Assembly: GCA_042408215.1 (NCBI GenBank)
Contig: JAYFMW010000030.1
Span: forward strand, 480,001 to 544,000
Direction of reading: 5' to 3'
DNA from: Microcoleus sp.
Lineage (GTDB): Bacteria; Cyanobacteriota; Cyanobacteriia; Cyanobacteriales; Microcoleaceae
DNA length: 64,000 bases
The position numbers were made by a program, and so were the translations under genes. Below are positions 1 to 6,032 of the stretch, piece by piece. Every line of letters starts with the position of its first letter. Position 1 is the stretch's first letter. Below the pieces are notes generated by a model. It was not told the DNA's origin, made no database searches, and saw only the letters and a program-made list of their open reading frames with translations.

Positions 1-152
1 CTAAGATGTAATCAGACTGACGCATCAAAATCCAAGAAACCGGGTTTTTAGCCATTTTTGCAAGCTGTGACGAAGTATCTCCCAAAAACCCGGTTTCTAA
101 CCACCAGTGCGTCGAAGACTAAATAAACAAGCTAAAAAGCAAGCAGGTAGCC

Positions 153-797
153 ATGACAGCCACCCTAATTCAAAGTCAAACTTCTGGAGTTTTGCTTACA
201 AACATTAGCTGGCAAACTTACGAATCTCTGGTAAACGAGCTAGCAGAACAGCGGGGAATTCGTTTAACTTACGATCGAGGTACATTAGAAATTATGACTC
301 CATCAGATCCACATGAGGGGAACAAACAAATCTTAGGACGTTTTGTAGAAACTGTCACCGAAGAATTGAATGTAGAAATTCGCAGCCTGGGTTCGAGAAC
401 TTGCAAACGCGAGGATTTAGAACGCGGATTAGAACCGGATCAGTGCTACTACATTGAGAATGAGGGAATTGTCCGCAGCCTCAAGCAAATTGACTTGAAT
501 CAAGATCCGCCACCCGATTTAGTAATTGAAATTGACATTACTAGCAGTTCTATTAACCGCATGGAATTGTATGCGAGTTTGGGCGTACCAGAGCTTTGGC
601 GTTATGACGGTTCGCGTTTAATATTCTATCAGTTAGAAGGTCAGGAATATGTAGAACGAGAGGTTTCTCCCCACTTTCCTTTTTTGTCACCCTCTGAGAT
701 TATGGGATTTGTGGAAACGCAAAAAGATGTGGGAGAAACATCGATGATTCGAGGGTTTAGGCAGTGGGTGAGGAGTAGGATTCAGTCAGGGGAATGA
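153..797 (+). CDS. Uma2 family (DUF820) putative restriction endonuclease
   Basis: Motifs 'ISWQTYE', 'RLTYDRGTLEIM', 'EPDQCYYI', 'PPPDLVIEIDITS', 'YASLGVPELWRYD'. Confidence 0.9.
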   Translation: MTATLIQSQTSGVLLTNISWQTYESLVNELAEQRGIRLTYDRGTLEIMTPSDPHEGNKQILGRFVETVTEELNVEIRSLGSRTCKREDLERGLEPDQCYYIENEGIVRSLKQIDLNQDPPPDLVIEIDITSSSINRMELYASLGVPELWRYDGSRLIFYQLEGQEYVEREVSPHFPFLSPSEIMGFVETQKDVGETSMIRGFRQWVRSRIQSGE

Positions 798-810
798 AAT
801 GAAAAGCGCA

Positions 811-1066
811 CTTGGATTGGGGGCGGGGTTCAGAAACCGGGTTTCTTCGGAACATCTCGTGAGGATGCGTAAATTCTCGTAGAAACCCGGTTTCTTGGAT
901 TGGGGGCGGGGTTCAGAAACCGGGTTTCTTCGGAACATCTGGTGAGGATGCGTAAATGCTCCTAGAAACCTGGTTTCTTGTATTGGGGGCGGGGTTCAGA
1001 AATCGGGTTTCTTCGGAACATCTGGTGAGGATGCGTAAATGCTCGCAGAAACCCGGTTTCTTGGAT
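811..1066. repeat. Three tandem 83-bp units, each with an AGAAACCGGGTTTCT/AGAAACCCGGTTTCT inverted pair
   Basis: Unit starts at 811, 894, 977 and a partial at 1060; only a few substitutions between units; the same palindrome family occurs at about 35-98 and 53910-53940. Confidence 0.9.
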
Positions 1067-1155
1067 GGTTGGGCGATCATCGCCTGTGGGATTAATTCAC
1101 CCACAATCGCCAAAAATATCGCATTCCCCCCTTTTGAAGAATGGGAATCTATTAA

Positions 1156-1344
1156 TTAAGGACAGTGATATGTGTTGCCATGCTTGTCTATGCAAATGTT
1201 TTGAGCTACGCTATGCTTCAACATCATCTTCATTGTAGCTCTTGGGGTAGTTGAGGTCGTCGCAACTTTGACCAATACCAAAGTCGAAGGGGCGATCGCC
1301 GAAATTAGTATAAATAAGCAGGAAATCAAGATTTTGCAATTCAT
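1156..1344 (-). CDS. Small secreted peptide precursor (62 aa) with C-terminal C-x9-C loop
   Basis: AGGTG Shine-Dalgarno-like motif 8 nt before the ATG; basic then hydrophobic N-terminus; possible 'SVA|Q' cleavage site; C-terminal QNICIDKHGNTYHCP; divergent from the STAND gene. Confidence 0.6.
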   Translation of the reverse strand: MNCKILISCLFILISAIAPSTLVLVKVATTSTTPRATMKMMLKHSVAQNICIDKHGNTYHCP

Positions 1345-1444
1345 TCTCGTGTCACCTAGTCAATTTTTTGAGTAGGGAACAAACGAGTTAGCGCTAACTG
1401 CTGTCTCCATAATTCCAGCATGAGGCAGGCCAAAAGGCTTTCGG

Positions 1445-1481
1445 GGTCACATCTAGGTCATTATTTGGTCATTTTGGGTGC
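1445..1481. promoter_or_regulatory. Direct-repeat operator candidate: GGTCA x3 at 11-bp period plus a degenerate GGTGC
   Basis: GGTCA at 1445, 1456 and 1467 and GGTGC at 1477, inside the divergent spacer between the peptide and STAND genes. Confidence 0.5.
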
Positions 1482-1534
1482 TAGATAAGTGAACCAGAAC
1501 AAAACAAAGAAAAAACCTAAGTAGAAAATAATTT

Positions 1535-4183
1535 ATGGCTGTGACTCTCAGAGCTTCTGACAAGGGGTTAAAAAAGATCGATCGCCTTAGAATTATCAAA
1601 GGCTGGTCAAAAAGAGAAAAGGCTTGGTATGAGTTGGCATATACTTCAGAATCTACTTTAAGGAGGTTTTGGAAAAAACAGCCAATTTCCTATGAAAATT
1701 TTGTCAAAATTTGCACAGTTATAGATGCAAACTGGCAAGATATTTTTGATGATAGTCATATCCCCGTAGGGACACAGCATTGCCGTGTCCCTACCTCTGC
1801 TCACCCCTTTGCACTTCCTGAAAAAATCGCACCAGTCAGGAATTGGGTAGGCCGATCGCGTGAAATCGACACCCTCAAATCCCAGATCCTCGATCCAGAA
1901 ACTAGAGCAATTACCATCACCGCCGTTTGTCTGGTAGGCTTAGCTGGAATTGGCAAAACCACTCTCGCCAGTCAGCTAATCCGCCAGCTACAAGCGGAAA
2001 ACGCCCCTTTTGCCGTTGCTGCTTGGGAAACTCTGCGATCGCCCACGGGCAAAGCACCTCAATTTGATAGCATTATTGATTCCCTATTGCTCACTCTTTC
2101 TCATGGCGAAATTTCTGCGGCTACTACTCAAAATGACTATCGCCAAAAAACAGAAATTTTGGTGAGATTACTAAAGGAAAAACCTTGTCTAGTTGTACTA
2201 GATAATGTCGAAACTGTATTGCAAACTGGGCAAGCTCAAAAAACGGGGTATTTTGCCGATGACTGTCTTGAGTATAAGTGGTTATTCAACCAGCTAGTCG
2301 AAACGGAACATCAAAGCAAAGTAATTTTTACCAGTCGGGAAAGTTTGGCAGAATTGTCCGCGATCGCGGTTAGAGAACTCCCTCTCAAAGGACTAGAAAA
2401 AGAGGATGCCGTGAACTTGCTGGAATCTCATCAGCAATGTTTGAATTTGACAACGACTTCAGAAGAATTAGCACAGTTGGCGGAACGCTATCAAGGACAT
2501 CCTAAAGCCTTGGAAGTAGTTTCAGCTTTGATTCGGGATGAACCCAAATTTAAAGGACAAGTAGGTAAATTTTTAGGCGATCGTCAATGGCTATTGATTA
2601 ATACCATCGATCGACTCATTGATGAAGTTTTTATTCGTCTCAGTGACTTAGAAAGAACTTGCTTGAGTCGGATTTCTGTTTATCAAACATCGGAATATCC
2701 ACTAGATACAGCCGGAATTGCAGCGCAGATGCCAGAGGTAAGCAAGTATGAGTTAGAAGAGAGCATTATTCAAGGACTTAGACGCAGGCAATTATTAGAC
2801 TATGACGATCAGCAAGAATCTTATCAAATGCACCCGTTAATTCAAGAAAAGGCTCATCGCGTCCTACGCCCTGATCCAAAATTTGCCACTTCAGAATGTC
2901 AAATTGCTAATCGCCAAGCCTATCGCTATTTCCTCAGTATCCAACTCAAAACTGAAGCTGAATGGCAAGAAATTGAGGATATTAAACCACTTCTGAGAGC
3001 GCACTATCACGCCTGTTGTGCAGAAGATTGGGATGAAGCGACAGGGGCAATTTTGGGAGTCTATGATTTCCTGCGTCTGGGATTTTTATTTCAGCTTTTG
3101 AAAGATTTATATACCAAACCAATCCCGCCTGACTGGAGAGATGGTAAACAATTAGTCACCTCTCCCGAAGTTCACGCAGATATTCTCCGATACCTGGGAG
3201 TAGCCTGTATTTATTTAGGTCAATATCAAGCGGCTCTTGAATATCTATCTGTCAGTTTGTCTACAGCCAGTAAAATTAGATATCGCGAAGGTGAAGCAGC
3301 AGCATTATGCGAGATAGGAGATGTTTACATAGAGACAGGAGACTACCAAATATCTTTAGACTATTTAAAACAAAGCTTAGTCATAGCTAGAGAAATTACA
3401 GCTAAGAAAATAGAATGTAAAGCTTTGATTTATCAAGGAACTAACCAATATTATTTAGGAGATTACTATCTAGGTAGAGCCACCTACAAGCAAGCTTTAA
3501 AAATAGCACGTCAAATTGGGTATATTGAAATAGAAGGAAGTAGCCTTAAGGATTTAGCTTTCTTTTATAATGTTTTAGGTGACTATCAATCAGCACTTGA
3601 CTATATTCAAAAATATTCATCTCTTCCTGATTCATATAAAGGAATCAGCTCTCTTAAAGAAGTTCAAGTCTATTTAGCTAATATATATTTTAATAAGGGT
3701 GAAGCTGAAACAGCCCAAAAATTTGCTAACGAAGCTTTACGCTTAGAGGGAAATATTGGAAAAAATTGCGGTACAGATTCATTTATTTCTTTTGGCATTA
3801 GCTACAGATTTTTTGAAGATTTACAACAAAGCTTTGAGTATTTTGACAAACGGTTTAAGAGAGCCAAGGAAATTGCTGTTAAATTCGATGAAGCCTGGGC
3901 TTTATATCAAATAGGCATGACTTATCTGCAATTAGGACAGCATGATTTATCTTTAGAGTATTTTCACCAAAGCCTTAATATTTTTCATAAAATAGGTACT
4001 CGTGCTTATGAGGCTGAGTCATTGTTGGAATTAGCAAAAACCAGTTTACTCATCAATAAAATCCCTTTAGAAACTATCCAAGATTACTGCGATCGCGCGG
4101 AAAACATTTGTCTCGATCTCAAGCTGCCACTATTAACAGAAGTACAAAAACTCCAAGCAAATTTACCGGAAAATCGCGACTAA
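1535..4183 (+). CDS. HTH + NB-ARC (STAND NTPase) + TPR protein
   Basis: N-terminal XRE-like helical domain ('TSESTLRRFW...FVKIC'); Walker A GLAGIGKT; Walker B LVVLDNVE; GHPKAL (GxP); YQMHPL (MHD-like); C-terminal TPR repeats. Confidence 0.9.
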   Translation: MAVTLRASDKGLKKIDRLRIIKGWSKREKAWYELAYTSESTLRRFWKKQPISYENFVKICTVIDANWQDIFDDSHIPVGTQHCRVPTSAHPFALPEKIAPVRNWVGRSREIDTLKSQILDPETRAITITAVCLVGLAGIGKTTLASQLIRQLQAENAPFAVAAWETLRSPTGKAPQFDSIIDSLLLTLSHGEISAATTQNDYRQKTEILVRLLKEKPCLVVLDNVETVLQTGQAQKTGYFADDCLEYKWLFNQLVETEHQSKVIFTSRESLAELSAIAVRELPLKGLEKEDAVNLLESHQQCLNLTTTSEELAQLAERYQGHPKALEVVSALIRDEPKFKGQVGKFLGDRQWLLINTIDRLIDEVFIRLSDLERTCLSRISVYQTSEYPLDTAGIAAQMPEVSKYELEESIIQGLRRRQLLDYDDQQESYQMHPLIQEKAHRVLRPDPKFATSECQIANRQAYRYFLSIQLKTEAEWQEIEDIKPLLRAHYHACCAEDWDEATGAILGVYDFLRLGFLFQLLKDLYTKPIPPDWRDGKQLVTSPEVHADILRYLGVACIYLGQYQAALEYLSVSLSTASKIRYREGEAAALCEIGDVYIETGDYQISLDYLKQSLVIAREITAKKIECKALIYQGTNQYYLGDYYLGRATYKQALKIARQIGYIEIEGSSLKDLAFFYNVLGDYQSALDYIQKYSSLPDSYKGISSLKEVQVYLANIYFNKGEAETAQKFANEALRLEGNIGKNCGTDSFISFGISYRFFEDLQQSFEYFDKRFKRAKEIAVKFDEAWALYQIGMTYLQLGQHDLSLEYFHQSLNIFHKIGTRAYEAESLLELAKTSLLINKIPLETIQDYCDRAENICLDLKLPLLTEVQKLQANLPENRD
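1766..1794. repeat. GTAG-type REP-like palindrome inside the STAND coding linker
   Basis: GTAGGGACAC-AGCATTGCC-GTGTCCCTAC, translated in frame within 'PVGTQHCRVPT'. Confidence 0.8.
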
Positions 4184-4205
4184 ATATATCATGAATTAGA
4201 TTTAC

Positions 4206-4925
4206 CTACTCCCCCAAAGCTTGCCGCTGAGCCTCCAACAATTCCTGAATCCCAGTTTCCGCCAAATCCAAAATTTGATTCAACTGACTCCGACTAAAAC
4301 TTCCCTCTTCCGCAGTTCCCTGAACTTCAATAATATTCAAATCCCCATTCATCACCACATTACAATCAATTTCCGCCGCCACATCTTCCACATAATTCAA
4401 ATCTAAAAATAGCTCACCTTCCAAAAGACCCACAGACACGGCCGCCACTTGACGCACAAGGGGCGATCGCACTAAATCACCTTTTTGCACCAACTTATTC
4501 AAAGCATCAGCCACAGCGAGAAACGCGCCATTAATAGAAGTCGTCCGAGTCCCCGCGTCCGCTTGCAAAACATCAGCATCGACAAGTATTGTGCGATCGC
4601 CCAATAGTTGCATATCCAAGCACGATCGCAAACTCCGGCCAATCAACCGCTGAATTTCCTGAGTGCGCCCCGATAACTTCATAAATTCCCGCTCTTGTCG
4701 CTGCGGCGTAGATCCCGGTAACATTCGATACTCCGCAGTCAGCCAACCTTTTCCGGTATTCTCCAGAAACCTAGGCACTCCCGGCTTAATCGTAACGCTG
4801 CACAGTACCTGAGTATCGCCACTTTTCGCTAGCACCGAACCGCTAGCAAATTTGGTAAATTCGCGATCGAAACTAATCGGACGCAGTTGATTTGGTTGTC
4901 TACCATCGGCACGTTTTATGGACAT
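4206..4925 (-). CDS. rph: Ribonuclease PH
   Basis: '[12 protein letters not shown]', '[11 protein letters not shown]', '[16 protein letters not shown]', 'LQADAGTRT'. Start moved to the ATG at 4925; the upstream ORF extension is repeat DNA. Confidence 0.97.
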
Positions 4926-4929
4926 AAGT

Positions 4930-4990
4930 AATTGGGAATTGGGAATTGGGAATTGGGAATTGCGAATTGGGAATTGCGAATTGCGAATTG
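4930..4990. repeat. STRR heptamer array (AATTGGG/AATTGCG)
   Basis: About 8 tandem heptamers. Confidence 0.9.
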
Positions 4991-5200
4991 GTGTCAACTT
5001 AACTTCTAACCCAGTCACAGACTGCGGTTTAACTATTAAACTTAGATCCCCCCGACGCCAAGAGGGCGGGCACGGGGGCACCGCCCCTACAAGGGGGGGA
5101 CAAGAGTCTGCTCAAAGTCCCCCTTCTTAAGGGGGATTTAGGGGGATCTAGACTGAGGTAAAAACTAGATTTCTCAAGGCTTTTAGTCTTAACTTGACAC
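4991..5200. mobile_element. MITE with terminal inverted repeats GTGTCAACTTAA...TTAA(C)TTGACAC
   Basis: Terminal inverted repeat; homologous second copy at 58716-58955; nested GC hairpins inside. Confidence 0.75.
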
Positions 5201-5256
5201 TCCTTGGGCATTGGGCATTGGGTATCCATCGATAAATAACAACTAACTAATAACAA

Positions 5257-5808
5257 CTAATTATTAACAACTTTAAGAATATCCTGCTGCACTTGTTCAG
5301 GAGATCGATCGCCGTTGACAGTTAACAGCTTGTTGCGATGCTCGTAATAATCTAAAATCGGGAGCGTTTGCTCCTCAAACAAATCGAGCCGGCGCTGCAA
5401 AATTTCTGGACTATCATCCGATCGCGATCGATCGCTCGATCGACTCAACAACACCTCCGTCGGCACCTTCAACCAAATCGCCCAATCTAGCTCTTGTCCC
5501 AAATCAAAGAGCAAAAAATCCAACTCCTCAGCTTGAAAAGCCGTGCGCGGATAGCCCTCCAACACCCAGCCATTAAAGACATCCCACAGCAGCAGTCTCT
5601 GGCGAAAGAATTGAATCATCGTGGCGTCGGGCACTAATTCCCCTGTTTCCACATAAGGCATCGCCAACTTGCCCAAATCTGTTTCAGAGGCGATCGCACC
5701 CCGCAGAATGTCCCCCACAGCCAGCAAAGGAATGCTCAAATTACTGCACAGTAGTTCAGCCTGAGTTCCCTTGCCCGCTCCAGGCCCTCCCAGAATCACC
5801 AATCTCAC
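5257..5808 (-). CDS. adk: Adenylate kinase (short form, no long LID)
   Basis: GGPGAGKGTQA P-loop, 'GDILR', 'GELVPD', 'EGYPRT', 'RSDD'. Confidence 0.9.
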   Translation of the reverse strand: MRLVILGGPGAGKGTQAELLCSNLSIPLLAVGDILRGAIASETDLGKLAMPYVETGELVPDATMIQFFRQRLLLWDVFNGWVLEGYPRTAFQAEELDFLLFDLGQELDWAIWLKVPTEVLLSRSSDRSRSDDSPEILQRRLDLFEEQTLPILDYYEHRNKLLTVNGDRSPEQVQQDILKVVNN

Positions 5809-5907
5809 TGTGCTCTGCTCCTAGCGCTGCGACATTCAAAGTTTACCCGTTATTGAGATAGATCGGGCAAAATGGCTGCGATCGCCACTACAGCCAGCTT
5901 TAGACAA

Positions 5908-5965
5908 TTTGTATATCTAGCGTGCGATCGGATGTACACTAAGTCCAGTACACTATATATTGTCA
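5908..5965 (+). promoter_or_regulatory. Tandem NrdR-box-like sites
   Basis: ACACTATATATTGTCA (5950-5965) fits the NrdR consensus acaCwAtATaTwGtg; a weaker box TTTGTATATCTAGCGT (5908-5923) lies 42 bp upstream. Confidence 0.55.
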
Positions 5966-6032
5966 ATCAGGCTTCATCCTCGTCAAGGTCGGAGCCGCCC
6001 CCAAGACTTAGTTGCTGATTAGATATTGCCCT

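Follow-up and report, generated by a model that had tools for sequence, protein, structure and literature searches.

The window is a stretch of 64,000 nucleotides from Microcoleus sp. (GenBank assembly GCA_042408215.1, contig JAYFMW010000030.1, positions 480,001 to 544,000 of the forward strand). We analyzed a pair of divergent genes near its start. The first is a 62-amino-acid (aa) open reading frame (ORF) at 1156-1344 on the minus strand. The second is an 882-aa ORF at 1535-4183 on the plus strand, and the spacer between them (1345-1534) is 190 bp. All evidence presented here is computational. The small ORF encodes a member of a family of Cys-loop peptides that goes with a dedicated tetratricopeptide repeat (TPR) domain, here called pTPR, in a module tied to NLR-like proteins. 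The likely receptor is pTPR and not the TPR array of the neighboring gene. The 882-aa neighbor is better read as a regulator that shares a promoter region with the peptide gene. An earlier note on this DNA had described the head-to-head layout at 190 bp, and the ORF coordinates agree with it. It had also named the 882-aa protein as the peptide receptor, which is probably wrong. The features of the locus are as follows.

1156-1344, minus strand: gene for the 62-aa Cys-loop peptide precursor (ORF, paralogs, family alignments, hydropathy)
1352-1357, minus strand: Shine-Dalgarno-like AGGTGA, 7 nt 5' of the peptide ATG (sequence; relatives have AGGAGA at the same position)
1122-1143, minus strand: terminator-like hairpin and T-run directly after the peptide stop (consensus scan)
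1386-1399, no strand: 14-bp perfect palindrome AGTTAGCGCTAACT, inside a block of about 75 nt conserved upstream of peptide genes
1445-1471, plus strand: three direct GGTCA repeats at 11-bp spacing, candidate operator of the HTH-STAND protein (pattern scan)
1535-1759, plus strand: predicted XRE/Cro-type helix-turn-helix (HTH) domain, aa 1-75 of the 882-aa protein (AlphaFold2 model, Foldseek)
1919-2551, plus strand: NB-ARC (STAND) NTPase domain, aa 129-339 (Pfam PF00931)
3170-4144, plus strand: TPR array, aa 546-870, presumed sensor arm (Pfam TPR_12, TPR_2, TPR_1)
811-1066, no strand: 83-bp tandem repeat, 3.1 copies with 94% matches, at the place of the convergent pTPR gene in related loci

The translation of the 62-aa ORF is MNCKILISCLFILISAIAPSTLVLVKVATTSTTPRATMKMMLKHSVAQNICIDKHGNTYHCP. 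It contains a hydrophobic N terminus (aa 1-28), a variable linker, and a conserved C-terminal loop (ICIDKHGNTYHCP). Cys51 and Cys61 are spaced as C-x9-C, and the C-terminal end is QNICIDKHGNTYHCP. The loop between the two cysteines may be closed by a disulfide. Residues 1-30 have a mean Kyte-Doolittle value of 2.4, and it is this hydropathy, with a reading of the sequence, that makes the N terminus signal-like. The C-x9-C tail and the ribosome-binding site of the earlier note were both found in place. One site came out of the terminator scan, where shuffles averaged 0.6, and the consensus match is thus weak by itself. An Rfam scan of 1-6000 matched no family.

The loop motif has four matches in the six-frame translation of the 7.36-Mb genome, three of which are family members. 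A 59-aa paralog in this genome is 44% identical to the window peptide and shares its start (MNCKxLIS) and its end (ICIDxxGNxYxCP). A 75-aa paralog matches NCBIfam NF040661 at 140 bits and is encoded directly after a pTPR gene. The window peptide itself scores 16.3 and 20.6 bits against NF040661, for which the curated cutoff is 50. Its homology to the NF040661-type family is backed by profiles A1 and A2.

Members of the family have a hydrophobic N terminus and a C-terminal loop of the form C-x-D-x-x-G-N-x-Y-x-C-P. In an alignment of 40 members, C51, G56, C61, and P62 are invariant, D53, N57, and Y59 are nearly so, and the linker is variable. Most members have an A-x-A-like site near residues 26 to 28, as read from the alignment. 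Profile searches retrieved the family from 77 of 79 genomes of the genus and from 14 of 201 genomes (6 of 96 genera) in an order-level sample. It was present in at least 23 of 401 genomes in a phylum-level sample, where the best 15 candidates per genome were scored. Relatives in named records were from Microcoleus, Tychonema, and Oscillatoriales. A profile search of 1.84 billion representatives returned 68 matches, about 20 of which are small family proteins. The others are long repeat proteins (for example, P0009 and P0010, with ...SICxDxxGNVYAAG... repeats), which we set aside as a beta-hairpin likeness at the level of the motif and not homology. The same library contains a 129-aa protein (P0025) with a signal-like start followed by four tandem C-V-D-x-x-G-N-x-x-E-C-P loops, a multivalent version of the motif. 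A word-index homolog search with the peptide gave no match; the peptide is too short and too divergent for that method, and the result is uninformative on novelty. The family appears to be lineage restricted and to consist of small exported or membrane-inserted peptides.

The last 18 codons of the window gene are identical to those of its closest relative (G204). Most pairs of other window-type copies have a ratio of nonsynonymous to synonymous substitution rates (dN/dS) of 0.2 to 0.5; three near-identical copies have too few changes. Judged from its paralogs, its presence in 77 of 79 genomes, and the invariant loop residues, the 62-aa ORF is a real gene, and this part of the earlier note stands.

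The family has three types. Type I peptides (62 aa) are of the window type. They were retrieved from 8 genomes of the genus and from three loci in named records (L102, L103, and L105). All 11 type I peptide genes face an XRE-HTH-NB-ARC gene, and they occupy at least two genomic sites. G223 has a spacer of 963 bp; in the other 10 it is about 190 to 320 bp. A pTPR gene is convergent with the peptide gene in 7 of the 11. It is absent from the window and from G223, and contig ends preclude a view in the other 2.

Type II peptides contain 59 to 63 aa. In all 23 type II loci examined, the peptide gene is convergent with a gene for pTPR fused to a variable head and divergent from a TRADD-N/DUF1822 gene. 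A WD40 protein comes next in 19 of the 23. Three kinds of head occur: ECF-like HTH, EAD4, and XRE HTH. Pfam supplied the domain names (TRADD-like_N at 51.5 bits, EAD4 at 60 bits, and DUF1822), and BLAST to those references supplied the labels for each of the 23 loci. The window locus has no TRADD-N, EAD, or DUF1822 component by Pfam.

Type III peptides contain 75 to 76 aa and are of the NF040661 type. Their signal is short and canonical (MKRT..., with ASKA ahead of the linker). The peptide gene directly follows a gene for a 241-aa protein that consists of a moderately hydrophobic segment and then pTPR. In other genera, the adjacent gene encodes a Ser/Thr kinase or a CHAT domain, a hydrophobic segment, and then pTPR.

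The association also holds from the side of pTPR. Among 79 pTPR loci in the contig set, which was fetched with a pTPR profile, a peptide gene is adjacent in 76 (60 by motif and 16 by hidden Markov model). L049 and L051 encode pTPR proteins of about 300 to 345 aa with an N-terminal XRE-type HTH and a C-terminal TPR. In L052 and L055 the peptide gene faces an ECF-like-HTH-NB-ARC gene, and in L140 the HTH-NTPase, pTPR, and peptide genes all run in one direction. L112 is a decayed locus with a truncated peptide that ends in PCA. The genome of the window also encodes a 709-aa protein (G000:C29:98441-100570; L178:2442-4571) with NB-ARC (Pfam), pTPR, and an N-terminal ECF-like HTH that was read by eye. 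It has no peptide gene nearby. Relatives of this fusion with 84 to 94% identity occur in five to six genomes, and a group with 48% identity and one in-frame TAG occurs in eight. Fusions of WD40-family domains and pTPR are present in L133 and L163. Because of these fusions and the shared gene orders, we treat the peptide, pTPR, and NTPase/TRADD-N modules as one functional neighborhood. No transporter or maturation gene was found in the loci examined. We tried the rule that a window-type peptide that lacks pTPR implies an HTH-NB-ARC-pTPR fusion in the same genome. It applied in the genome of the window and did not in G223 or G204, and it was rejected.

The likely binding partner of the family is the dedicated pTPR domain, in the model through an asparagine-lined groove. 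The co-folded pair was taken from a relative (L044) and contained a pTPR domain of 214 aa (34-row alignment) and peptide residues 29-62 (39 rows). It scored 0.82 (runs of 0.83, 0.82, and 0.81), and the best of three controls scored 0.09. Among solved complexes, 116 of 157 reached the mark for a pass, as did 2 of 215 mismatched pairs; these counts are only rough because our own alignments were used. At least 65% of contacts were common to the runs, and the pLDDT (predicted local distance difference test) of the partner was at least 54. The model places the Cys loop in the pTPR groove, and the peptide side of the predicted interface is this loop, residues 48-49 and 51-62. On the pTPR side, positions N11, Y45, and A74 are invariant, and N12 and N46 are nearly so. 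Peptide position 49 is W where the loop ends in KYHCP and L where it ends in EYPCP; this is a hint only, the sequences being related.

The 882-aa protein contains three parts. Its NB-ARC domain matches PF00931 at 55 bits (cutoff, 23.5), and the P-loop GLAGIGKTT and the motif LVVLDNV are readable in the translation. Its C-terminal repeat array matches TPR_12 at 93 bits, TPR_2 at 66 bits, and TPR_1 at 50 bits. The N-terminal 95 aa match no Pfam family above its cutoff (HTH_26, 13.8 bits against 22), and a search of PDB sequences with them to an E value of 10 gave no match. An AlphaFold model of this part, built from 18 relatives, has five helices and a pLDDT of 72.7. The Foldseek matches listed for the model were all XRE/Cro-type HTH domains, the best at an E value of 9.5e-3 and none at or below 1e-3. 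The PDB matches listed were C.BclI, SinR, VanU, C.AhdI, ClgR, HipB, and the ComR DNA-binding domain, with target-normalized TM (template modeling) scores of 0.55 to 0.7. With moderate confidence, the N-terminal domain is predicted to have a five-helix XRE fold. The DNA-binding-like N domain, STAND ATPase, and TPRs that the earlier note described are in agreement with this model and with the Pfam matches. The closest paralog in the same genome (G000:C6:229250-230944) is 61% identical in the NB-ARC part and was matched in several frames. It may be a frameshifted pseudogene.

Full-length homologs of aa 96-882 were retrieved from 14 other genomes of the genus with 47 to 97% identity. Only two of them (G204 and G260) have the peptide gene. 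The other 12 have no peptide match on the contig: G230 (85% identity), G062 (70%, partial), G267 (54%), and nine at 47 to 50%. The conserved linkage that had been expected thus stands from the side of the peptide, where 11 of 11 genes face XRE-HTH-NB-ARC, and fails from the side of the 882-aa protein, where 2 of 14 homologs have the peptide. The sensor arm beside type I peptides also varies. The window, G204, G260, and L105 have a fused TPR; G243 and G223 have one kind of split TPR, and G217, G227, and G262 have another; L102 and L103 have WD40. One and the same loop, CIDKNGNKYHCP, adjoins a fused TPR (G260), a split TPR (G243), and WD40 (L103). In a profile comparison, the TPR array of the 882-aa protein had only a generic TPR likeness to pTPR (probability, 26%). 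A search of the whole window contig for pTPR found none. Peptide recognition by a TPR, as in the RRNPP systems, is therefore retained as a prediction for the pTPR of the family, on the strength of the co-fold model. The TPR array of the 882-aa protein as the cognate receptor is not retained: 2 of 14 homologs with the peptide, a variable sensor arm, and a generic likeness to pTPR all speak against it.

The spacer between the two genes is conserved in seven of eight type I loci. The pattern of three GGTCA repeats at 11-bp spacing has one match in the window, none in 100 shuffles, and no other exact match in the genome. A second site of this type, with one mismatch (C20:391688), has no related genes nearby and was treated as chance. 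The exact triple recurs in six of seven other loci with the HTH subtype of the window, and in L105. In G227 the middle repeat is GGTCC and the spacing is different. The array of type I loci lies 100 to 130 bp upstream of the peptide ATG. Other HTH subtypes have four or five (G/A)GCTCA repeats at the same place, with the peptide present or absent. The repeat word seems to differ from one HTH subtype to the next. The DNA block 1140-1756 contains the peptide gene, the spacer, and HTH aa 1-73; matches to it at 86% and at 79% identity continue into a different NB-ARC. For the NB-ARC-TPR part, a match at 90% identity is attached to a different HTH, and the peptide is missing there. In a metatranscriptome relative, the peptide is present and the HTH segment is different (402 letters replace 1450-1807). 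An XRE HTH, an oligomerizing NTPase, and helix-turn-spaced repeats before its own gene would fit an autoregulated STAND transcription factor. This protein may bind the repeats, and it may also control the peptide gene. As a side observation, L040, L041, L043, L046, L039, and L102 have (G/A)GCTCA direct repeats at about 10- to 12-bp spacing before the HTH-NB-ARC start, and L080 to L082 have GGTAC.

The palindrome at 1386-1399 belongs to the peptide gene, because its block is also present where the divergent gene has no such HTH. A palindromic variant, AGTTAGGCCTAACT, with changes at 1392/1393, occurs in other loci and in the contigs of a relative. We ruled out the palindrome as a private operator of this HTH, since the same block stands beside partners that lack the HTH. 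Type II loci with a long TRADD-N-DUF1822 partner (such as L083 and L012) have a different upstream block, in which the palindrome TATGACAnnTGTCATA replaces AGTTAGnnCTAACT.

We propose the following explanation of the locus. The 62-aa ORF would be a functional member of its family, with the C-terminal two-cysteine loop of 12 to 15 residues as its business end. The cassette of related loci contains peptide and pTPR genes head-to-head with an "NLR-like" operon. That operon encodes XRE-HTH-NB-ARC with TPR or WD40, or TRADD-N-DUF1822 with WD40. The pTPR domain is fused, locus by locus, to an ECF-like or XRE HTH, EAD4, a membrane segment, a Ser/Thr kinase, a CHAT protease, or an NB-ARC NTPase. In the window, only the peptide and HTH-NB-ARC-TPR genes remain, with the 83-bp tandem repeat at the expected place of pTPR. 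The 882-aa protein is most likely a STAND-type transcription regulator whose XRE HTH would sit on the three GGTCA repeats. It would control its own gene and probably also the peptide gene across the spacer. The readers of the peptide would be pTPR proteins from other parts of the genome, namely two small ones of 305 and 240 aa on contig C17 and the HTH-NB-ARC-pTPR fusion. Taken whole, a STAND regulator on the divergent promoter region and a peptide read by pTPR proteins, we give this explanation an even chance.

Several findings weigh against it. The window has no pTPR gene. Compared with its closest relative (G204, 95% identical), the window peptide has a dN/dS of about 0.9, with the changes clustered in codons 25 to 44, and this copy may be drifting. 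A sigma-70-like promoter scan of 1000-1700 found none. In four metatranscriptome libraries, contigs from a 90 to 95% relative cover the genes for the peptide and the NB-ARC protein and some of the spacer; the libraries may contain DNA, one contig spans both divergent genes, and the contigs therefore cannot show transcription. The palindrome block occurs with a partner that lacks this HTH (p176), and the co-inheritance of HTH subtype and repeats could be plain physical linkage. The co-folded pair is that of a relative and not the window peptide. Its pass may lean on memorized structures, because TPR-peptide complexes (such as OGT and Hop) have been solved and the first repeats of pTPR resemble OGT and consensus TPRs. 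By hydropathy, the pTPR proteins that go with peptides of the window type and of type II lack a hydrophobic segment, and they are therefore taken to be cytoplasmic. This appears not to match an export-like peptide, and it would need re-import, a membrane-anchored form, or another topology.

The compartments would be reconciled if the hydrophobic N terminus were a membrane anchor. The peptide would then be a fixed adaptor that tethers cytoplasmic pTPR or shows its loop outside the cell, and there would be no diffusible signal. The uncharged stretch of about 21 to 24 residues (Kyte-Doolittle 2.3 to 2.5 for aa 1-30) exceeds a typical signal-peptide core. But type III peptides have a canonical short signal and a partner whose pTPR lies behind a membrane segment, kinase, or CHAT and so outside the cell, and most members have the A-x-A-like sites. 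We think an anchor is quite improbable. The reading of the earlier note has the peptide exported, processed, and re-imported; it would bind the TPR array of the 882-aa protein, which would oligomerize and act on DNA as an NLR-like receptor with its cognate ligand. Head-to-head order in 11 of 11 window-type loci is what it would expect, the window and G223 need another reader of the peptide, and the NB-ARC-pTPR fusion in the same genome indicates that such STAND proteins can use a peptide-type TPR sensor. We nonetheless regard it as improbable, given that 12 of 14 full-length homologs (47 to 85% identity) have no peptide gene on the contig, that the loop CIDKNGNKYHCP stands beside three kinds of sensor arm, and that the 882-aa TPR is only generically like pTPR.

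It is also unlikely that the peptide is a bacteriocin-like or membrane-active effector under the STAND regulator, with pTPR as an immunity, chaperone, or sequestering protein. The small size, the hydrophobic N terminus, and the predicted disulfide loop would suit an effector, and the tight pairing with a binding protein resembles toxin-immunity pairs. Passages of Kaur et al. (PMC8195603, PMC7159879) read such neighborhoods as conflict systems with variable effectors. However, the loop is conserved and not diversified, the loci examined have no transporter or maturation gene, and the fusion of pTPR to output-type HTH, kinase, CHAT, and EAD4 fits a receptor better than an immunity protein. A further reading, to which we give a similarly low probability, is that the window copy is an orphan remnant. 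The pTPR gene would have been lost to the 83-bp repeat array, and the peptide, now disused, would persist by recent common descent. The contig has no pTPR gene and a repeat array in its place, the comparison with the 95%-identical relative gives a dN/dS of about 0.9 and many linker changes, and decayed loci such as L112 exist elsewhere. The linker changes say little because the linker varies across the whole family. The frame, start codon, ribosome-binding-site-like sequence, hydrophobic N terminus, and invariant loop residues have all been kept, the last 18 codons match those of the closest relative, and the spacer is conserved in seven of eight loci, all of which argue against disuse.

A broader idea, which we hold only tentatively and think doubtful, is that a multicellular cyanobacterium here uses a cytokine-like circuit. 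Through it, one cell would pass an immune or cell-death decision to its neighbors in the filament or mat. NLR-like STAND and TRADD-N systems would control release of the Cys-loop peptide. The asparagine-ladder TPR receptor domain would read the peptide and act through HTH, EAD4 adaptor, kinase, or caspase-like CHAT outputs.

Comparative genomics is the only source of knowledge on the STAND (NLR-like) and TRADD-N systems of multicellular bacteria. The module described here adds a testable pair, a Cys-loop peptide of 13 to 15 residues and a TPR domain of about 200 residues, for which an interface is predicted and contact residues are invariant. At least three architectures link this pair genetically to STAND/TRADD-N systems. 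The locus also supplies candidate operators for XRE-HTH-STAND regulators, in the form of direct repeats specific to the HTH subtype. If the peptide is a diffusible signal, the module would extend peptide signaling with RRNPP logic beyond Firmicutes and connect it to immunity-like modules. Otherwise, the pair still offers a way into the function of these systems.

The pair of genes lies in a variable island. The region between a Uma2 gene and rph (797-4206) varies among congeners from 1.7 to 6.1 kb in all. Alternatives between the same flanks contain a different HTH-NB-ARC(+TPR) set, a 341- to 347-aa protein with a signal-like N terminus, or a 304-aa or 868-aa protein. The 83-bp repeat of the island contains internal GAAACCCGGTTTC palindromes, and it occurs in relatives too. 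Longer arrays of the unit are present elsewhere in the genome (C20:571025-572473, C17:684454-686739, C5, and C3). The RNase PH ORF at 4206-5081 on the minus strand encodes 291 aa from a GTG, and in its relatives the start corresponds to residue 53, which gives 239 aa. The N-terminal extension, which is translated from short direct repeats, is probably noncoding.

Among named families, NF040661 ("Osc7112_2153 family protein") has the same motif and layout as the window peptide. The window peptide differs in that it ends at the loop, without the acidic tail of about 10 residues. The NCBIfam entry consists of the name only, and our literature search for "Osc7112_2153" found no paper.

The RRNPP systems of Firmicutes and phages (Rap, NprR, PlcR, PrgX, ComR, and AimR) also have a small propeptide gene beside a gene for a TPR-type receptor. 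Their active part is the C terminus of the peptide, as the Cys loop is in our co-fold model. The pTPR proteins of L049 and L051 share the layout of an N-terminal XRE-type HTH and a C-terminal TPR, and the N-terminal model of the 882-aa protein resembles the ComR DNA-binding domain among other XRE domains. The differences are that the host here is a cyanobacterium, that the peptide has a Cys-closed loop whereas the RRNPP pheromone is linear, that the neighbor in the window is a STAND NTPase and not a plain HTH-TPR protein, and that pTPR is also extracellular on kinase and CHAT proteins. The AimR model matches the 882-aa TPR at 31 bits against a cutoff of 70, and no RRNPP family was among the Pfam and NCBIfam matches of the pTPR proteins. 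Of the traits of an RRNPP pair, adjacency of a propeptide gene to the 882-aa gene is present, and the co-fold score of 0.82 concerns the pTPR pair of a relative, in a model. Judged from listings, a literature search on RRNPP with cyanobacteria and on Microcoleus with related terms found no such system. The RRNPP_Detector paper contains the word cyanobacteria in its reference list only.

The STAND regulators MalT and AfsR (SARP-NB-ARC-TPR) are built from the same parts as the 882-aa protein and combine an HTH with a STAND NTPase and a TPR sensor arm. The HTH of MalT is C terminal and of the LuxR type and that of AfsR is of the OmpR type, whereas the predicted HTH of the 882-aa protein is XRE type and N terminal. 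Its matches to the corresponding models are weak (AfsR, 47.8 against a cutoff of 1430; MalT, 31.7 against 537), as is that to MalT_TPR. Helix-turn-spaced direct repeats are the kind of site used by oligomerizing STAND regulators, and the window promoter region has direct repeats at a spacing of one helix turn.

The triad of peptide, pTPR, and STAND/TRADD-N was not found described in the literature searched, which included passages of the two Kaur papers. In those passages (PMC8195603 and PMC7159879), no mention of the peptide or pTPR was found; the term "signal peptide" is absent from both papers, and "secreted" is used 0 and 2 times, in the second case on an unrelated subject. The same passages describe TRADD-N/EAD/STAND conflict systems of multicellular prokaryotes with shuffled N-terminal HTH and EAD heads (Kaur, Burroughs, Iyer, and Aravind, 2020, PMC7159879; 2021, PMC8195603). 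Their architectures include ECF-like HTH heads and neighboring AP-ATPase-TPR genes. As far as these passages go, the sister loci of the peptide resemble the systems in content. They carry TRADD-like_N, DUF1822, EAD4, WD40, and NB-ARC-TPR with shuffled HTH and EAD heads.

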